Notes: generated by a model from the sequence alone, not told the origin. Numbered from the stretch's first letter, positions 28,553-57,743 are shown. The stretch is 64,000 nucleotides of DNA from a bacterium (GCA_032250835.1 JAVVEA010000006.1:64001-128000); one strand, 5' to 3'. Made by a program: numbers and translations.

Positions 28553-29329
28553 ATGAAGCTCTCGGCGGCGATCATCACGCTGAACGAGGAGCGCAATCTG
28601 GCGGCCTGTCTGGACAGCCTGGACTTTTGTGATGAATGGGTGGTGGTGGACTCGCTCAGCCAAGACGCCACCTGCGAAATCGCTCGTTCCAAGGGGGCCA
28701 AGGTCATCGACCAAGCCTTTTTGGGCCATGTGCGGCAAAAGCAACTGGCCGTGGATTCCTGTAGCCACGACTGGGTTTTGTGTCTCGACGCCGACGAACG
28801 GATCAGCCCCGAATTGCGGGCCAGTATCTTAGCCTTAAAAAATCAAGAAGAGCCTGAATTGGCAGGTTATCAGGTCAACCGGCTGAGCTGGCATCTGGGC
28901 CGCTGGATCCGCCACGGCGGCTGGTACCCGGACCGCAATATTCGGCTCTTTGACCGCCGGCGCGGCCATTGGGCGGGCTATGACCCCCACGACAAGGTGG
29001 AGGTTGAGGGGCCGGTGGGCCTGCTAACCGGCGACCTGCACCATTATGTGTTCAAAGACTTGGCCCACAACGTGGCGACCAATAATTCTTATTCGGGCAT
29101 CATGGCCAAAGACTTGGCCCAGGCGGGCAAAGGTCCTAGTTTACTCAAGCTGCTCTTTAAGCCGCCCTGGAAATTTGTGGAATGTTATGTTCTTAAGGCA
29201 GGCTTTTTGGACGGCATGGCGGGCTTCATCATCGCCGTAGGGGCGGCTTATTCGCTCTTTTTAAAATTCGCTAAGCTTTGGGAACAGCAGACCCTTGATC
29301 CGGGGGACAGTGAACAGCCCCGAAAGTAA
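28553..29329 (+). CDS. GT2 glycosyltransferase (LPS beta-1,4-glucosyltransferase-like)
   Basis: LSAAIITLNEE, LDADE, HGGWYPD, GFLDG. Confidence 0.9.
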   Translation: MKLSAAIITLNEERNLAACLDSLDFCDEWVVVDSLSQDATCEIARSKGAKVIDQAFLGHVRQKQLAVDSCSHDWVLCLDADERISPELRASILALKNQEEPELAGYQVNRLSWHLGRWIRHGGWYPDRNIRLFDRRRGHWAGYDPHDKVEVEGPVGLLTGDLHHYVFKDLAHNVATNNSYSGIMAKDLAQAGKGPSLLKLLFKPPWKFVECYVLKAGFLDGMAGFIIAVGAAYSLFLKFAKLWEQQTLDPGDSEQPRK

Positions 29330-30380
29330 AGCCCAGGCGCTCTGCCGCTGGTTTGACCAAACCCAACGTCCGCTGCCCTGGCGGGCCGAATATGCCCCCT
29401 ATCAGGTCTGGATTAGCGAGATCATGGCCCAGCAGACCCGCATGGACCAGCTGATTCCCTATTACTTGCGGTGGATGAAAGCGCTGCCCGACATAGCCGC
29501 CCTGGCGGAGGTGCCTGAAGACCAACTGCTTAAGCTTTGGGAGGGTTTGGGTTACTACAACCGGGCCCGCAACTTAAAGCTAGCCGCCCAAAAGGTGATG
29601 GCCCAGGGCGGCAAATTGCCCATGGGCCGCAAGGAGCTTTTGGACCTGCCGGGCATCGGCCCCTATACCGCCGGAGCGATTCTTTCGATTGCCTTTAACC
29701 AGCCCGAACCCTTGATCGACGGGAATATCGAGCGGGTCTTGGCGCGGCTCTTGGACCTGGATATAAACCCCAAGACCGCCGCCGGCAAGCGCTACTTTGA
29801 AGCCGAAGTGGCGGCCCTGATGCGCGGCTTTGAGCCCCGTAAAGTGGCCCAGGGGTTGATGGAGCTAGGCGCGCTGGTCTGCTCGCCCACTAACCCCAAC
29901 TGCGGCGAATGCCCCTGGGGCGGTGACTGCTTGGCCCGCCAAAAGGGAACCATCGAGGCCCGCCCAGTCCTGCCGCCGCGCCCTGAAGGGATCAAAGAAA
30001 AGCGCTTGGTCTTGGTTTTAGAAGAGTCCGGCCAGTTTTACCTGCTGCCCCAACCCAAGGGAGCCCGCTGGGGCGGTATGGAATTGTTTTTGATGCCCTT
30101 GGTTGAACGCTGGCCCCAAGCCGAGGGCCTAACCGCCCACCTCCCCGAAGGCGTCGCGTTAGCCGGAACGCCCCAATATCTAGGCGAATTCAGGTATACG
30201 GTCACCAAATACCGCGTCCAAGCCCAAGCCTGGCGTATCCCCATAGACCGCCGCCCCTCTGGTGGCCTCTGGCTGAGTCTAGAAGAACTAGAAGCCCGCG
30301 CCCTACCCCGGCCCGGCGTAAAGACCCGGGAGTTGTTGCGGGGTGCGCTTAAGCCCCGCAATGCTGTTGCTGCGCTATAG
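29310..30380 (+). CDS. mutY: A/G-specific adenine glycosylase
   Basis: WISEIMAQQT, WEGLGYY, HhH-GPD region, C-x6-C-x2-C-x5-C FeS motif. Confidence 0.93.
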   Translation: MNSPESKAQALCRWFDQTQRPLPWRAEYAPYQVWISEIMAQQTRMDQLIPYYLRWMKALPDIAALAEVPEDQLLKLWEGLGYYNRARNLKLAAQKVMAQGGKLPMGRKELLDLPGIGPYTAGAILSIAFNQPEPLIDGNIERVLARLLDLDINPKTAAGKRYFEAEVAALMRGFEPRKVAQGLMELGALVCSPTNPNCGECPWGGDCLARQKGTIEARPVLPPRPEGIKEKRLVLVLEESGQFYLLPQPKGARWGGMELFLMPLVERWPQAEGLTAHLPEGVALAGTPQYLGEFRYTVTKYRVQAQAWRIPIDRRPSGGLWLSLEELEARALPRPGVKTRELLRGALKPRNAVAAL

Positions 30381-30689
30381 GGGTATCGAGAGATTGTCGC
30401 GCATAACCTGGGCCCATTTCGGAGCGCCGGGAACCTAATTTCTTCACAATCATCTTAAAATCACAATTTATTTTGCGATTTTCTACATTGCGTTGCTTTG
30501 TCATTAGATTTTGAATTCTCTATTTATTGCGAAATTCATGGTTTCAAGGGCAGGCGACTCGAATCAAACACTATTTTTATCTCAGCAGCTTGACAATAAA
30601 ATATCCCTGTGAAATAAGATAACCGCCTGCGGGATGATTCGATTCCCATGGGTTTTTATTGTTTCATTTAACTTTTCAAAAGAGGAAAT

Positions 30690-30725
30690 ATGTACCCACC
30701 TGTGATTAAGCCTGAGGCTAAATAA
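30690..30725 (+). CDS. Putative 11-aa precursor peptide MYPPVIKPEAK
   Basis: AGAGGA RBS at 30681-30686, ATG 30690, TAA 30723-30725, followed by a perfect hairpin and three modifying enzymes. Confidence 0.5.
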   Translation: MYPPVIKPEAK

Positions 30726-30736
30726 ATAACCAATAG

Positions 30737-30764
30737 CGTTTAGAGGCAGTTCCGCCTCTAAACG
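30737..30764 (+). promoter_or_regulatory. Perfect 11-bp stem-loop between micro-ORF and oxygenase gene
   Basis: CGTTTAGAGGC-AGTTCC-GCCTCTAAACG; no long U-tract. Confidence 0.75.
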
Positions 30765-30788
30765 TCTTAATACATTAAAATTCGTGAA

Positions 30789-31406
30789 ATGAACAAGTTG
30801 TATGCAGATTTGCAGCACAGGTTCGATGCCGCTGGTTTTTTGATATTGAAGGGTTCCGAGTTTTATTCCGACGCCCAATGGGAAATTATTGACGGCTATT
30901 CAAATCAAGTCAGCTACGAATCAGTCCAGAAGGGGCTGCAGAAAGACTCCGAATACGCGGCACATGTTGGCCGTATTGTCCTTGATGGGCCCACACCATC
31001 GGGAGAATACCTTCAGATCAACGAACCCGAAAACCTAGCCGATTGCAGCACAGAGCTTTTATGGACGATACTCAATCCTCGAGTACTCGCCGTTACCAGC
31101 GCCATTGCCTCCATTGACATCCCCAAGGTTCAAAGGTGCCAATACAACCTATTGAGATCTGGGGACCATATCGGAAAACATATCGATGCGCTGCACGGTA
31201 TTCCCTATGACCTTACCTTTGTACTCGGTCTAGAAGGAGACTACCAAGGTGGGATTTTTCAGCTTTATGGCCAAACCAACAGTGAGGTCTTTTTCCATAA
31301 AATTTCAGAAAAAGACCTAATAATTTTTAAAAGCCCTTTGCTGCATTCTGTTACCAAAGTATCAAGCGGCAAGAGGAAAACTCTTTGCTTATTTTTGAAA
31401 AAATAA
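30789..31406 (+). CDS. 2OG-Fe(II) oxygenase (prolyl-4-hydroxylase-like)
   Basis: HID...YQGG...LHSVTKVSSGKRKTL: HxD...H triad and 2OG-binding Arg. Confidence 0.88.
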   Translation: MNKLYADLQHRFDAAGFLILKGSEFYSDAQWEIIDGYSNQVSYESVQKGLQKDSEYAAHVGRIVLDGPTPSGEYLQINEPENLADCSTELLWTILNPRVLAVTSAIASIDIPKVQRCQYNLLRSGDHIGKHIDALHGIPYDLTFVLGLEGDYQGGIFQLYGQTNSEVFFHKISEKDLIIFKSPLLHSVTKVSSGKRKTLCLFLKK

Positions 31407-31422
31407 ACTGTACGAGGAACCC

Positions 31423-32757
31423 TTGGACTTTATAATTTTTGTTCCCTTCCCTGACTATTGCTTTAGTCAAGACCCCCCTTGTTTAGGCGCCGGAAGTATC
31501 TCTGGTTATTTGAGCAGCAAAGGCTATGAAGCTTCCGTGGTGCCGGTGACTAGTGCAGACCTCCCCAATATTTCTCAAAATCAATGTGATATTATCGGGA
31601 TCAGTATTCTTGAGGATTCTTGGGAACTGGCGCAAAATATCGCCGCAATTTATCAAGCTCAAGGTAGCAAGGTAATCGCAGGCGGCGTATTCACCTCAGT
31701 TTGCCCAGAGGAGGTACTGCAAAGCGGTCTTTTTGATGCAGTCTGTATTGGAGATGGGGAATTAATCGCTCAAGTGTTCATTGAGCAAATTATGTCTGGC
31801 AGGCACGAGAACCTTAAAGGTTTGGTCTGGAACGATAAATATTTGGTTTCTGAGGCTCAGGATTTTTCCTACAACATACAAGAGGATCTTTCGTTATTCC
31901 AAAGTTCGGATTTTGGCTACAAATCATTTTTACCCATTAGTTCCTATTCAGATACTTCTCGAGTCATCTTAACGCCCCCTTCAGGCGACGAAACCGGTGC
32001 GACCTGCGAATTTATGTTTTCGCGGGGCTGTGGTTATCGTTGTACCTATTGTCACAACTCAAATGAGGCGGTTCAAGACGTTCAATGGCTTCGATTTTAC
32101 GACCTACGTTGCGTTATTGCTGATATTGAAAGAATCCACCAACAACACAATTTGAGTAGAATTTGCATCTTAGACGATGATATTATTTCAAATTATCCCT
32201 ATTTCCGGCAGTTTGTTGAACTCTATTCTAGCCGGATTCATCTCCCCTATAGAGCATTTACTCGACCAGAAAAAATCAATGCCAGAACCGTAAAAATGCT
32301 CAAGGACTCGGGGTGCTATTTGATTTCCATGGGTCTGGAATCAGCAAATCAAATGATCCGGGAGAAGGTGTTAAACCGGAAGATGTCTACCGAGCGCATA
32401 GCAAAAGCAATGCGGTTGTGCCGTGAAAATGGAATCCAAACGATCATCAACGTAATGATCGGCATTCCAGGTGAAACTGAAGAAGAGATTGAAGAGACGA
32501 TTTCTTTTTTAGAAGAGAATCGACCTGATTTTGTGTTTGCTTCCATATTCACTCCCTATAGGGGAACGAAAATCTACAATATTTGCAAAGAAGCGGGCTG
32601 GGATTTGCGAGCTTCAAATACCGGAGGAGTGCAGTACGGGAGCTCAAAAAATCCCTACTTTGTAGGCAAAGAATCTTATTTGCGGGCCTCTCTTCAGCGG
32701 TTGCAACAGCTTTCGCAAGTTCAGCCAATGGTAAGTAGCTGCAAAAGCATAAAGTAA
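31423..32757 (+). CDS. Cobalamin-dependent radical SAM enzyme
   Basis: N-terminal B12-binding-like domain (IIGIS, IAGGVF, IGDGE); SRGCGYRCTYC motif; MGLES, MIGIPGET. Confidence 0.92.
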   Translation: MDFIIFVPFPDYCFSQDPPCLGAGSISGYLSSKGYEASVVPVTSADLPNISQNQCDIIGISILEDSWELAQNIAAIYQAQGSKVIAGGVFTSVCPEEVLQSGLFDAVCIGDGELIAQVFIEQIMSGRHENLKGLVWNDKYLVSEAQDFSYNIQEDLSLFQSSDFGYKSFLPISSYSDTSRVILTPPSGDETGATCEFMFSRGCGYRCTYCHNSNEAVQDVQWLRFYDLRCVIADIERIHQQHNLSRICILDDDIISNYPYFRQFVELYSSRIHLPYRAFTRPEKINARTVKMLKDSGCYLISMGLESANQMIREKVLNRKMSTERIAKAMRLCRENGIQTIINVMIGIPGETEEEIEETISFLEENRPDFVFASIFTPYRGTKIYNICKEAGWDLRASNTGGVQYGSSKNPYFVGKESYLRASLQRLQQLSQVQPMVSSCKSIK

Positions 32758-32881
32758 TCAGTTTGTTGGCTCATCTTGTTTGTATTGTGAAAGGAGCACC
32801 AAAAGAGCTATTGGCAAATTTGATAATGCGCCCAAAAACCCATATTATACGGAATCAAAACACCTGTCGGAGCGGTTTCCA

Positions 32882-33622
32882 ATGAATACTTTGGAGTATA
32901 TATCCTTGAATGAAAGTGACACCATTGATGGTTATCAGTTTTACCAGAACTCGTTGGCGGCCGCCAATTGGGGGGAGGAGTTTGTGTGGTCGGGCGATGA
33001 ACAACTGCCCGAGGAGTTGTTGCAATTTAGCATCGAAGTGGCAAGCCAGTCTTTTTATGCCGAACAGCTAGGAATGCTTGGGGCCATCAGGTTGACCGAG
33101 CGCTGTCAGGACGTGGGCATGCGCATGCATTTGGCCAGCGCGATCATGGACGAAGCCCGCCACACAAAAGTGTTTTTTGACTATCTTAAAAGTAAAAAAT
33201 CGACGCCCCAGCCCCCCGCAACACACTGGAATGAGATTAATGGGGAAATGGGCTCCGGCAAATCTCATTTGTACGGGTTTTATGCTCATACCATGCTTGA
33301 AAACCAAGCCCTTGTCTCCTTTGAATTGTTGCAAAACATATTTTTTCCATTTGATTTAGGCAGTGTGTACAAAAAGGTGAAAAATGACGAGGCACGGCAC
33401 GTAAAAATGGGGATCGAGTTTATCCAGAAACTCTCCTTGGAAACTCCAAAGCCAAGAGAAACCCTGGTACAAATACATGGAGAGGTTATGGAAAATTGCG
33501 GAATTAGTGACGAGGCCTGTCGATACTACGCCAAATATTCAGAGCTAAGTGATGCGCAAATTAAAGAGAAATTCGTGCACCGTCAGTCTTCAATGCTTAA
33601 AGCTGTAACCGGTCTCCCCTAA
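32882..33622 (+). CDS. Ferritin-like di-iron oxidase/oxygenase
   Basis: YAE...DEARH...LE...DEARH paired ExxH ligands; GGAG RBS before ATG 32882. Confidence 0.85.
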   Translation: MNTLEYISLNESDTIDGYQFYQNSLAAANWGEEFVWSGDEQLPEELLQFSIEVASQSFYAEQLGMLGAIRLTERCQDVGMRMHLASAIMDEARHTKVFFDYLKSKKSTPQPPATHWNEINGEMGSGKSHLYGFYAHTMLENQALVSFELLQNIFFPFDLGSVYKKVKNDEARHVKMGIEFIQKLSLETPKPRETLVQIHGEVMENCGISDEACRYYAKYSELSDAQIKEKFVHRQSSMLKAVTGLP

Positions 33623-34093
33623 ATTTCGGTGACAATCGTTGGGAACCGCATGGTGCTCCATCTGGCTCTCATCGCAAAACCTATCCGATGTGGGGTCCCG
33701 AGAAAGGGCAAAATGTAGTTTGCGCTGGGTCCTTAGTTAGGTGTACCCTGCTGCAAAAATAAAAGTCTGTGCGGTTCTGGAGGACTCGAAGTTATCTGAG
33801 TTGCCCGGAATGATTTGGGCGGTTCCTGTGGATCTTAAGGCCCTGAAGTTAAAGGAGGTTGTGCGGGTGAAGGACGAGTAACCCAGCCTATAGCCGGTCA
33901 GGCCGATTTTCTCAAATGGCGCGGACGAACCCGAAGGCGGCATCCAATTCGCATTCATCCTCGCGGCCAGCAAAACCGCCCCCACCTTGCAGCCTGAGAC
34001 CGGCACTTCTCCTGGGCTGGTATTAGTGGGGGAAGTCGAATTAGCGGAGAGGATGTCCTTTACTGCTTGCGGTTAGGTGTCTAAAAGCAGTCG

Positions 34094-34366
34094 CTACAAT
34101 TCCTGCCCGGTCACATGCTTGTGCAAAATCATGCTGATGTATGTTTGGTAGCCGAGGCCTGCGCGAGCGGCCTTGGCCTTGATCGCTTCTAGGTCGTTTG
34201 GGGCCAGGCGGAGATTGACTTTGGCGGACTTCTTTAGGGCTTCGGTGGCTAGCTTCTTCCAAGTGGCCTTTGAAAATTGAGGGTCCGAAACCCATTCTTC
34301 GGTTTCAAGGGATTCCATCAGTTCCGCTTCTTCGGCGTCGAAGGGCTTTTGATTGGTGTCACTCAT
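34094..34366 (-). CDS. BrnA/CopG-like antitoxin
   Basis: VNLRL...DLEAIKAKA...GLGYQTYI RHH-type C-terminus. Confidence 0.88.
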   Translation of the reverse strand: MSDTNQKPFDAEEAELMESLETEEWVSDPQFSKATWKKLATEALKKSAKVNLRLAPNDLEAIKAKAARAGLGYQTYISMILHKHVTGQEL

Positions 34367-34629
34367 TCTTTAAACCTCTGGTTGTACTTTCGGCTTTTAA
34401 AGGCGGTCTTCAGGAAAATCCCCTGGCCGTCTTTTACGTAGGGCACGGCCCACACGTAGTTTTGACACCAAACCAGCAGAATACGCTGATGGTCCTTGGT
34501 AGGATGTTTGATGTCATCTATGGCCGCGTCCAATTGGACTGCTTGGGCTAATTCCTCAAAGGAAATCCCTCGTTCGGCGATCAACCACTCGTTTTTGTCT
34601 TCAGCCCATCGTAGGCAATCGTAGTCCAT
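34363..34629 (-). CDS. BrnT-like toxin
   Basis: W..DKNEWL..ERGISFEE...VPYV...IFLKTAFKSRK; overlaps antitoxin start. Confidence 0.88.
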   Translation of the reverse strand: MDYDCLRWAEDKNEWLIAERGISFEELAQAVQLDAAIDDIKHPTKDHQRILLVWCQNYVWAVPYVKDGQGIFLKTAFKSRKYNQRFKE

Positions 34630-34635
34630 GCCTAA

Positions 34636-34664
34636 ATCGTAGGACAAAAGATAGACATTATCAA
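34636..34664 (-). promoter_or_regulatory. Sigma70 promoter of TA operon (probably leaderless)
   Basis: TTGATA-17nt-TACGAT, 6 nt upstream of the toxin ATG. Confidence 0.65.
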
Positions 34665-34911
34665 GTGGAAACCTAGAGCCCATGTCAGGCGAGTGTCCCA
34701 AAGTCTACTCGCTCAATTCGTTTGCCCCTTGCCCAGAGTTCCCGCCCAAAAGCCGCAGCCTTGCTCGATTTCTTCAGGGTTGCGCCACCCGCAACCTGAC
34801 CCCCTTACCCGAGCCCCCACCAAACCCCAAAAAGGGTTGTCAAGCCCGGCGGGTTCTGGTATCAAGGTGGATACTCAAGCCAACAATAACCCTCCTCACC
34901 TCTTAGGCCCC

Positions 34912-36150
34912 ATGAAGTTACAGGTCGTCAAGGGAATGCGCGATTTGAGCGGTCCCGAGGCACGCGCTTTCAGTTATTTGGAAGCCGAAGCCCGGCGTAT
35001 CTTTGGGCTTTATGGCTTTGAAGAGCTGCGTACGCCGCTGATGGAGTTCGTGGAACTCTTCACCAAGGGCATCGGCGAAGAGACGGATATTGTGGGCAAG
35101 GAAATGTATCTGCTCGAAGACCGCAAGGGGCAGAAGCTGGCCCTGCGGCCCGAAGGCACCGCTTCGGTGGTGCGGCATGTGGCGGTTTCGCAGGTGCTCA
35201 AACAAAAGAAGCAGGCCAAGTATTTTTACATGGGCCCCATGTTCCGTTACGAACGCCCCCAAAAGGGCCGCTTCCGCCAGTTCCACCAGATTGGGGTGGA
35301 ATCCTTCGGCGTTGAAGGGCCCGATGCGGACCTGGAAATGTTCTTGATGCTGCGCCAATACTTTGCGGCCATCGAACTGACCGACGTGAGCTTCCAGATC
35401 AACAGCATCGGCTGCCAAGACCCTGGCTGCCGCCCGACCTTCAAACAGAAGCTGGTTGAGTACCTAAGCGCGCATAAAGAAGCGCTTTGCGAGGACTGCA
35501 ACCGGCGCATGGAAACCAATCCCTTACGGGTCTTAGACTGCAAGGTGCCCGGCTGCATAGAAGTGACCCAGTCGGCCCCCAAGGCTATCGACTGGCTATG
35601 CGAGCCCTGTGACAGCCACTTTAAGGAATTGACGGCGCTGCTCGAAGACAACGGCATCCAATTTGAATTAAACCACCGGCTGGTTCGGGGTTTGGATTAT
35701 TATTCGCGCACCGTTTTTGAGGTCTATTCGGCCAACCTGGGGGCCCAAAGTGCGGCCGGAGGTGGCGGGCGTTTTGATGGGCTCTTTGAGCAATATGGTC
35801 AAGAATCGGTGCCCAGTATCGGTTTTGCGCTGGGCCTCGACCGCTTGGCGCTGCTCGCACCCGAGCCGCCCGCCGGGGAGGCACCGGTTTTTGTGATTGG
35901 CTTTGAGCGGGCCGCTACGGTAAAATTAGTGGCCGCCGTAAGAAATGCCGGTAAGGGCTGTTTTTATGATCCGGGATTTGCTAGCATGAAAAGTCAGTTC
36001 AAGCAGGCCGACAAGGCAGGGGCCCGGTTTGTGATGATTTTAGGCGAAGAAGAGGTTAAGTCGGGCCAAGTGGCCTTAAAGGATTTGTCTACCGGTGAAC
36101 AGGATCGGGTGGACATAGCAACGGCCCTGGCAAGGGTAACGGAGGCTTAA
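34912..36150 (+). CDS. hisS: Histidine--tRNA ligase
   Basis: LRPEGTA, FRYERPQKGRFRQFHQ, LVRGLDYY. Confidence 0.97.
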   Translation: MKLQVVKGMRDLSGPEARAFSYLEAEARRIFGLYGFEELRTPLMEFVELFTKGIGEETDIVGKEMYLLEDRKGQKLALRPEGTASVVRHVAVSQVLKQKKQAKYFYMGPMFRYERPQKGRFRQFHQIGVESFGVEGPDADLEMFLMLRQYFAAIELTDVSFQINSIGCQDPGCRPTFKQKLVEYLSAHKEALCEDCNRRMETNPLRVLDCKVPGCIEVTQSAPKAIDWLCEPCDSHFKELTALLEDNGIQFELNHRLVRGLDYYSRTVFEVYSANLGAQSAAGGGGRFDGLFEQYGQESVPSIGFALGLDRLALLAPEPPAGEAPVFVIGFERAATVKLVAAVRNAGKGCFYDPGFASMKSQFKQADKAGARFVMILGEEEVKSGQVALKDLSTGEQDRVDIATALARVTEA

Positions 36151-57432: not shown

Positions 57433-57464
57433 AATCCCTCCTGAAACCGTGAAGAAAGGGGTTA

Positions 57465-57536
57465 TAGGCGCGGACGGGATTGAACCGTCGACCACTACCG
57501 TGTCGGGGTAGTGCTCTCCCACTGAGCTACGCGCCT
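57465..57536 (-). tRNA. tRNA-Val(GAC), atypical
   Basis: AGGCGCG/CGCGCCT acceptor stem, anticodon loop CCGACAC, no encoded CCA. Confidence 0.85.
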
Positions 57537-57554
57537 ATAAAGAACTGATATGAC

Positions 57555-57630
57555 TGGTGGAGGATAGCGGGGTCGAACCGCTGACCTCCTGCTTGCAAGG
57601 CAGGCGCTCTACCAACTGAGCTAATCCCCC
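57555..57630 (-). tRNA. tRNA-Ala(TGC)
   Basis: GGGGGATTAGCTCAG..., anticodon TGC, CCA encoded. Confidence 0.95.
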
Positions 57631-57666
57631 AGCTTTTATCAGCAAACCCTTGCGGGCTAAAGCGTC

Positions 57667-57743
57667 TGGTGGGCCAGGGTGGATTCGAACCACCGACCCC
57701 GTCCTTATCAGGGACGTACTCTAACCAACTGAGCTACTGGCCC
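57667..57743 (-). tRNA. tRNA-Ile(GAT)
   Basis: Anticodon loop CTGATAA, CCA encoded. Confidence 0.95.

Follow-up and report, generated by a model that had tools for sequence, protein, structure and literature searches.

An R2lox-like oxidase gene and an 11-codon candidate precursor gene in a foreign island between mutY and hisS: a probable leaderless RiPP-type operon

A stretch of 64,000 nt of bacterial DNA (GCA_032250835.1, JAVVEA010000006.1:64001-128000; hereafter the window, in which all coordinates are counted) carries an island between mutY and hisS that we regard as probably a leaderless micro-precursor operon of the kind that makes peptides synthesized ribosomally and modified after translation (RiPPs). 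An 11-codon open reading frame (ORF), the micro-ORF, is followed on the same strand by a perfect hairpin and by genes for a 2-oxoglutarate (2OG) oxygenase, a B12-binding radical S-adenosylmethionine (rSAM) enzyme and a ferritin-like protein. The last of these resembles R2lox, the R2-like ligand-binding oxidases; it is the enzyme shared with other operons that contain a short ORF, and would act at tyrosine. The features on which this reading is based are the following.

30381..34692: foreign island, about 4.3 kb inserted between mutY (29295-30380) and hisS (34693-36150)
30681-30686, plus strand: Shine-Dalgarno (SD)-like AGAGGA, with the GAGG core at -8
30690-30725, plus strand: micro-ORF MYPPVIKPEAK, 11 codons and TAA (ATG at 30690, TAA at 30723-30725), candidate leaderless precursor
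30737-30764, plus strand: perfect hairpin, 11-nt arms (30737-30747 and 30754-30764) with 100% complementarity around a 6-nt loop
30789-31406, plus strand: 2OG-Fe(II) oxygenase of 205 aa, prolyl-hydroxylase-like superfamily (PF13640, 31.9 bits against a cut-off of 27)
31423-32757, plus strand: B12-binding (class-B) rSAM enzyme of 444 aa, TTG start, GAGGAA SD
32882..33622, plus strand: R2lox-like di-metal carboxylate protein, its ORF open from a TTG at 32780 and its likely start an ATG at 32882

A micro-ORF at the head of three metalloenzyme genes

The micro-ORF reads ATG-TAC-CCA-CCT-GTG-ATT-AAG-CCT-GAG-GCT-AAA-TAA, and an in-frame TAA at 30669-30671 rules out a longer one. Its SD spacing is within the range of this genome, in which SD-like 4-mers peak at -11 to -8 before the genes (1813 long ORFs). 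The gap between its stop codon and the first enzyme gene is 63 nt; at the sequence level, a candidate precursor gene is encoded together with the putative tailoring enzymes. The hairpin begins 11 nt past the stop codon, has an extra G-U pair (30736/30765) and no U-tract on the plus strand, and a 125-nt region around it folds with z = -3.0; a terminator scan rated it terminator-like on the minus strand. Hairpin and peptide are each single-copy in the 3.66-Mb genome, a scan of which showed no second SD-preceded small ORF of the YPPV type. A search of 30300-30900 with Rfam gave no riboswitch or other known RNA, only two chance-level matches (E 3-7).

The 2OG oxygenase has the facial triad H131-x-D133 and H186 together with R196, and its feature and structure matches were all to PF13640. 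The rSAM enzyme matches PF02310 (51.2 bits, cut-off 32.1) and PF04055 (78.3 bits, cut-off 29.5), the domains of a class-B enzyme, and has the cysteine triad CGYRCTYC at residues 203-210 (C203-x3-C-x2-C210). Its closest non-self homologue was 30% identical (word-indexed search, 122 matches among 3725 candidates). It falls in no curated family of B12-dependent rSAM enzymes, all scores being far under the cut-offs.

The initial annotation of this DNA had proposed a minimal RiPP system made of these elements. The AGAGGA ribosome-binding site, the ORF and the perfect 11-bp hairpin were all found where it had placed them, and its three co-oriented metalloenzymes with intact motifs were confirmed by the PF13640 triad, the rSAM cysteine triad and the two DEARH motifs of the ferritin-like protein.

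The ferritin-like protein belongs to an R2lox-like family

The metal ligands of the ferritin-like protein are E95, E125/H128, E174 and E204/H207 in the numbering of the 280-aa ORF, with the DEARH motifs at 124-128 and 203-207; the database gene call starts at 32906. The protein has no Pfam match. An exhaustive HMMER search of 1.84 billion representatives gave 127 proteins at E<=1e-3 and 48 at E<=1e-10. The best homologue, P0122, is 41% identical and is a hypothetical protein of a Trichormus variabilis NIES-23 plasmid (BAY73528.1), and the next, P0123, is from Amycolatopsis (WP_125734605.1, Amycolatopsis sp. WAC 04197); a locus scan with P0123 as a single-protein query gave no match.

The six ligands (E / ExxH / E / ExxH) are invariant in 45/45 aligned family proteins. 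Against solved structures, the family profile has its top match in the R2-like ligand-binding oxidases (E 5.8e-11), and the AlphaFold model of the window protein (pLDDT 93.8) has R2lox for all of its top Foldseek matches (TMq 0.73-0.79, with 0.78 for the closest; about 14% identity). Ligands and Foldseek matches together give a ferritin-like fold with six carboxylate/His metal ligands. The score to NF006200 (R2-like ligand-binding oxidase) is 21.4 bits against a cut-off of 194, which leaves the protein outside that family as defined. On ligands, profile and predicted fold, we assign it to an unnamed R2lox-like family.

Family loci with a readable context were counted if the window protein matched them at >50 bits or the family profile at E<=1e-40, which gave 21 loci other than the window: 18 of what we call type A (L009-L016 and L115-L124) and three of type B (L007, L008 and L093). 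Two further members (L017, L018) were left out because their contigs were too short for the peptide position, and 74 of 80 metagenome loci (L019-L092), with <=37 bits to the window protein, were set aside as a more distant ferritin-like group. Two candidates from Streptomyces and Nonomuraea (H4 and H5; 26-29% identity over half the query) were excluded as proteins of about 375 aa in a context like that of nonribosomal peptide synthetases.

A quick maximum-likelihood tree (60 rows) joins the window protein to P0122, P0123 and P0124 (SH-aLRT 98). This group is nested in a clade of 16 rows (95) to which all type B loci also belong, and all type A loci are among the other 43 rows. Because the tree puts it in the type B clade, the window enzyme would belong with the leaderless side of the family.

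The 34 open codons before the likely ATG (32780-32881) encode a basic stretch that contains N-P-Y-Y, and a promoter-like motif lies inside them, between the rSAM and ferritin-like genes:

32820-32848, plus strand: promoter-like TTGATA-17-TATTAT (10/12), a consensus match only

Promoter-like sites in the region are no more numerous than in shuffles.

Short tyrosine ORFs accompany the family

In 21/21 of the other family loci, a short ORF with a conserved tyrosine was found in the same operon, preceded by an SD and usually followed by a strong hairpin. The element common to these loci is the ferritin-like enzyme and not the rSAM enzyme, a point unseen in the initial annotation, which had suggested looking for a conserved short ORF beside homologues of the enzymes; carried out on the wider ferritin-like family, that check came out positive. 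The initial annotation had pointed to a Pro/Val/Ile/Lys-rich peptide; the residue conserved across the short ORFs of the family is tyrosine.

The type A loci come from four genome contigs (L009-L012), four metagenomes (L013-L016) and ten Streptomycetaceae/Pseudonocardiaceae loci, and represent Actinomycetota, one metagenome-assembled genome of Terriglobia, and metagenomes. The family is rare in the Streptomycetaceae/Pseudonocardiaceae searches, with hits in 6/401, 7/401 and 2/401 genomes (overlapping sets). All 18 type A loci have an ORF of 24-51 codons 0-30 nt after the ferritin-like gene, and a B12 rSAM gene directly follows this ORF in 16 (the contigs of the other two end before it). Where scanned, that enzyme is a TIGR03975 'RiPP maturation radical SAM C-methyltransferase' (487-578 bits) and is followed by DUF5825, often with a major facilitator superfamily (MFS) transporter next. 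A perfect 10-17-bp hairpin stands after the stop codon in 9/18 by a strict rule, to which L014 adds a 12-bp stem by RNAfold.

The type A peptides share M-x-I-K-K-V-x-[ILV]-K…[K/R/C]-Y, often followed by x-x-P-P, as in CRYLAPP, QYIQPP, LYIKPP and CYYPAPP; no NCBIfam model covers them. Their sequences include MVLKKVKLENAVTGTCRYLAPPKKLNWTDTKN (L009), MKTRKISHTTKVCTQYIQPPENNISRAQRSKR (L013), MKKRAITAGCKIGLLYIKPPAPNLNWEESKLAPGTRP (L015), MVLKKVRLNTLVTNTCYYPAPPKALKRIAKQG (L122) and MEIKKVAVRAQTKAADKYSVAVTRRVNDNAKR (L012). Locus L013 combines a ferritin-like gene, a B12 rSAM gene, a peptide gene, an MFS transporter and, at the operon end, a PF13640 oxygenase of 319 aa; the trio of enzyme types of the window therefore recurs there beside a peptide gene. 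A complex prediction of the L013 ferritin-like protein with its own 32-aa peptide yielded no verdict, with a score of 0.00 in a run without controls.

The type B loci are on plasmids of Xenorhabdus sp. TH1 (L007), Pantoea agglomerans (L008) and P. ananatis (L093). Their operon consists of an MFS gene, the ferritin-like gene, a gene for a 200-aa HxD…H protein, a sterol-desaturase-family gene and further oxidoreductase genes, with no rSAM gene.

L007 7670-7696, L008 7691-7717, L093 4692-4718: unannotated 8-codon ORF, MDYQPLAS in Xenorhabdus and MDYQPLAV in Pantoea
L007 9692-10294, L008 9706-10308, L093 6706-7308, partial in L018: type B 200-aa protein, hypothetical

The 8-codon ORF precedes the MFS gene by about 70-95 nt. 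A suitably spaced AGGAG or AAGGAGG stands before it, and behind it comes a hairpin whose stem has 9-14 perfect base pairs (RNAfold gives 13-14). In an alignment of the Xenorhabdus and Pantoea spacers the ORF is the longest and best-conserved block, and its codons 5-7 (Pro, Leu, Ala) differ only synonymously (CCA/CCG, CTG/TTA, GCT/GCA), a pattern that would be expected of a translated and selected ORF. The window and the type B loci thus have one layout in common, which runs from an SD through 8-11 codons, a stop codon, 9-24 nt and a perfect 9-14-bp stem to the first long gene. The 200-aa protein has a conserved K-H-K-D…E-H-W and a weak match to Asp_Arg_Hydrox (E 0.027). It showed no similarity to the window 2OG oxygenase by BLASTP or hhalign, the HxD…H pattern being seen by eye only; it may be a small cupin/2OG oxygenase in the role of the window PF13640 enzyme.

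Chance expectation and specificity

How often an SD, an ATG and an ORF of 5-40 codons arise by chance was evaluated on 2000 dinucleotide shuffles of the 408-nt spacer, plus strand. Such an ORF appeared in 350/2000 shuffles under a loose SD rule and in 105/2000 under a strict one. Because 5-17.5% of shuffles give one, the micro-ORF taken alone is within chance and not significant. By itself it is little unusual, and the argument needs evidence from outside the window.

The full combination was evaluated by a scan for an SD (three SD words), an ORF of 5-60 codons and a perfect hairpin of >=9 bp within 45 nt, in 12 loci of 228 kb, both strands (about 456 kb of strand sequence). The ferritin-linked ORF was recovered in 8/12 loci, with about six other matches, of which three lay in the remaining 60 kb of the window; L009, L010, L014 and L016 were missed for lack of a perfect stem or of a listed SD word. 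Therefore, the combination of SD, ORF and hairpin is rare generally and concentrated at ferritin-like operons.

Comparison with known systems

In clavusporin biosynthesis, the B12 rSAM enzyme MpcB and MpcC, a DUF5825 protein, are described as C-methylating Pro, Val, Ile and Thr of a 13-mer core (bioRxiv 10.1101/2024.01.23.576971); the word 'ferritin' is absent from the main text of that preprint. As far as that description goes, the window is similar in having a short hydrophobic peptide rich in Pro, Val, Ile and Lys and a B12 rSAM enzyme, and the type A loci are more so, with their TIGR03975 rSAM and DUF5825 genes and a peptide gene directly upstream of the former. By gene content, type A loci appear as a variant of clavusporin-type clusters in which a ferritin-like gene stands where the S9 peptidase gene does. 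The window differs in that its rSAM enzyme is of another subfamily (444 aa, CX3CX2C, 56 bits to TIGR03975), that the island has no DUF5825 (no PF19142 match), S9 peptidase or MFS gene, that the peptide has no leader or follower, and that an R2lox-like oxidase and a 2OG oxygenase are added.

Biarylitides are described as being made from a 5-aa precursor that is cross-linked by a cytochrome P450. On that description, the window shares with them a leaderless precursor gene below the size limit of gene callers, a minimal gene set and a chemistry that would be centred on an aromatic residue; no P450 domain was found in the island, in which a di-metal carboxylate enzyme, a 2OG oxygenase and a B12 rSAM enzyme stand instead. 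For the biphenomycin-like RiPPs (pbs), an oxygenase, a cupin hydroxylase and a B12 rSAM enzyme are reported to act together on a short aromatic motif (PMC12257519). The resemblance, as the system is presented there, lies in the serial use of metalloenzymes (an aromatic-ring-hydroxylating iron oxygenase, a cupin-type hydroxylase and a cross-linking B12 rSAM enzyme) on such a motif; their multinuclear non-heme iron oxidase (MNIO, DUF692) with its RiPP recognition element (RRE) partner, their leadered precursors and their TldD-type protease have no counterpart in the window.

The R2lox proteins themselves are described as making their own Tyr-Val ether cross-link in an O2-dependent reaction and as binding a fatty acid. 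They share with the window family, of which they are the best profile and fold match, a four-helix ferritin-like core and the E / ExxH / E / ExxH ligands. The identity is only about 14%, the window protein has about 240 aa against 316 aa, and the NF006200 score is far below its cut-off; and whereas R2lox, on the available description, cross-links itself, the window enzyme is operon-linked to short peptides.

A leaderless 7-codon gene, mccA, stands at the head of the microcin C operon and is followed by a terminator hairpin that gives an excess of the short transcript. The window shares this layout of a leaderless tiny gene and a hairpin at the operon head. The maturation chemistry of microcin C (adenylation by MccB) is unrelated, and the window cluster has no enzymes homologous to it.

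Because the defining enzymes of the clavusporin, biarylitide and biphenomycin classes were tested for and not found, we place the window cluster in none of these classes, and judging by its genes it would work like them in outline. The initial annotation, which had not recognised the enzyme trio as a described RiPP class, is borne out on this point. The literature searched, which did not extend to subscription journals or supplementary tables, held no description of a ferritin-like or R2lox-type enzyme in RiPP biosynthesis.

Origin and surroundings of the island

In the two closest relatives examined (L096 and L097), GT2, mutY and hisS are contiguous, with a mutY-hisS gap of <~260 nt. The 408-nt spacer has a GC content of 38% and the three enzyme genes have 43-45% (38-45% over 30381-33622), compared to 55% in the window, 61% in mutY and 57% in hisS. 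Because the relatives lack the insert and its GC content is low, the island (30381-34692) is foreign DNA that was horizontally acquired; the AT-rich insert of the initial annotation is thereby borne out. A search for direct or inverted repeats at the island borders gave only short chance-level matches.

Upstream of the micro-ORF there is a further stem-loop:

30625-30653, plus strand: imperfect stem-loop followed by UUUUUAUUGUUU, terminator-like with a U-run (RNAfold), 30 nt before the SD

The terminator scan passed over it (9-nt loop). If it terminates mutY transcription, the island would need its own promoter in a very short space. A TTGACA is present at 30591-30596, and 17 nt on there is only a poor -10 element, AATAAG.

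At the hisS end, a type II toxin-antitoxin pair occupies 34041-34701 on the minus strand.

34094-34366, minus strand: CopG/BrnA-type antitoxin (E 8e-9)
34363-34701, minus strand: weak BrnT-like toxin (E 1.7e-4, below cut-off)

The GC content of this stretch is 50%, and because this exceeds that of the enzyme genes, the pair may be a separate insertion. Between it and the ferritin-like gene lie about 420 nt (33623-34040, 54% GC) with no recognisable gene; an 89-aa ORF on the minus strand (33737-34006) had no Pfam match. Elsewhere in the window, tRNA-Ile(GAT), tRNA-Ala(TGC) and tRNA-Val(GAC) are tightly clustered at 57464-57743. The first two are the pair usual in rRNA operon spacers, and the window scan detected no rRNA.

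Discussion

The mechanism that we infer for the island begins with translation of the 11-codon ORF into MYPPVIKPEAK, which would consist of Met and a Tyr-first core of ten residues. The type B peptides would correspondingly be Met-Asp and a Tyr-first core of six, and the type A peptides a basic leader of about 17 residues with Tyr-first cores of 7-17 residues. The stem-loop would set the ratio of peptide message to enzyme message, through partial termination or 3' stabilisation, and the three downstream metalloenzymes would tailor the peptide. The R2lox-like di-metal (Fe/Fe or Mn/Fe) oxidase, as the shared and probably class-defining enzyme, would act with O2 on the single conserved tyrosine, either hydroxylating it or cross-linking it to a neighbouring side chain through an aryl ether or C-C bond. 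The PF13640 oxygenase may hydroxylate Pro or Lys, and the B12 rSAM enzyme may methylate an unactivated carbon (of Pro, Val or Ile) or make a cross-link.

Several results weigh against this reading. No orthologous cluster was found with which to compare this particular micro-ORF, and the likeness of the 11-mer to the short tyrosine ORFs of the family is one of analogy. In word-indexed searches of 5.8 billion clusters, the 2OG oxygenase (123 candidates) and the ferritin-like protein (273 candidates) each matched only itself. The rSAM enzyme lies outside the RiPP-type subfamily (TIGR03975, 56.4 bits against a cut-off of 281.85), and its top sub-threshold matches are to B12 rSAM enzymes of lipid, phosphonate and hopanoid metabolism: 98.6 bits to the ladderane-lipid type (cut-off 360), 94 to the PhpK type (600) and 88 to HpnJ (578). 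It and the 2OG oxygenase are related to their L013 counterparts only at the superfamily or Pfam-family level. Many of the family loci are kin (L008 with L093; L012 with L116-L119), so that about 9-10 independent lineages stand behind the 21. The resemblance between Y-P-P in the window, Y-Q-P in type B and Y-x-x-P-P in type A was spotted post hoc, the Streptomyces cores have no Pro, and Tyr occurs in 40%, and Y-x(0-2)-P in 4.6%, of random 8-14-codon ORFs from shuffles of the spacer.

Part of this evidence would suit a regulatory leader peptide, in which the progress or stalling of the ribosome, for example at Pro-Pro, controls the hairpin and the expression of enzymes whose substrate is a small molecule or lipid. 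Attenuators of transcription or translation classically have such a layout of short ORF, hairpin and structural genes, and the type B ORF and hairpin stand before an MFS transporter gene. The lipid and hopanoid matches of the rSAM enzyme point the same way, as do the fatty acids that R2lox is described as binding and the small-molecule-type tailoring genes of the type B operons (sterol-desaturase family, short-chain dehydrogenase/reductase (SDR) and Gfo/Idh/MocA). As the initial annotation had noted, Pfam and NCBIfam scans of all island ORFs found no leader peptidase or other protease, RRE, or exporter or transporter, which also weighs on this side; such elements are frequent in RiPP clusters, although leaderless classes can do without them. 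However, one tyrosine kept across three unrelated operon layouts is not expected of a regulator, and 16/18 type A ORFs lie between the ferritin-like gene and the TIGR03975 enzyme gene, which is the known position of the clavusporin precursor. Moreover, the window hairpin leaves the start region of the next gene uncovered, lacks a plus-strand U-tract and has no predicted alternative pairing with the ORF. We therefore consider regulation by a leader peptide unlikely.

Less likely again is a chance frame in AT-rich foreign DNA, with the hairpin an unrelated terminator or stability element and the enzymes what is left of a larger non-peptide pathway truncated during transfer. The frequency of SD-preceded small ORFs in the shuffles would fit this, as would the lack of a transporter and of an orthologue, the terminator-like rating of the hairpin on the minus strand and the adjoining addiction module. 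Yet SD, ORF and perfect hairpin coincide only about once per 80 kb of strand and do so here exactly at the operon head; the layout is repeated in the three type B loci, whose enzyme is nearer kin of the window protein, and the peptide has the tyrosine of the family followed by Pro. The enzymes might also modify another ribosomal peptide, encoded elsewhere in the genome or formed by the 34-residue N-terminal extension of the ferritin-like ORF, which is basic, Tyr-bearing and of type A peptide length, next to a gene that the type A peptide likewise adjoins. This we think very improbable: starting at a TTG, without an SD and with no stop codon before the enzyme, the extension would not be a separate small gene, it is omitted in the database gene call, and the genome scan showed no second YPPV-type candidate.

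We thus retain a leaderless RiPP-type operon as the probable nature of the island, and the initial interpretation as partly supported. The sequence-based case for a minimal RiPP system gains from the family-wide short tyrosine ORFs, 18 of whose loci are in a RiPP context and three of which are leaderless with SD and hairpin. More tentatively, since the proposal reaches further, R2lox-like oxidases might be class-defining maturases of an undescribed RiPP family, acting on an invariant tyrosine at the core start, for example by an ether or C-C cross-link. The precursors would extend from ~32-mers with leaders down to genes of 8 and 11 codons without a leader, which would rank among the smallest known for any RiPP. 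The window cluster would be a singleton hybrid, in which this oxidase is joined by a 2OG enzyme of prolyl-hydroxylase-like type and a B12 rSAM enzyme of non-canonical type. About 15 billion predicted proteins include no close relative of the window cluster, which is therefore likely to make a new scaffold.

If this is true, a ferritin-like, R2lox-related oxidase would be a new enzyme family for RiPP biosynthesis, and 8- and 11-codon ultra-short precursor genes would be escaping current gene callers and RiPP miners. Three cluster architectures would be available for mining and expression, and culturable hosts (Streptomyces, Pantoea and Xenorhabdus) carry two of these. The function of R2lox-type proteins is described as not established (PMC9314684). 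The operons described here would provide a substrate hypothesis for these proteins that is open to testing, and short tyrosine-containing peptides would give the R2lox branch of the ferritin superfamily its first physiological type of substrate.

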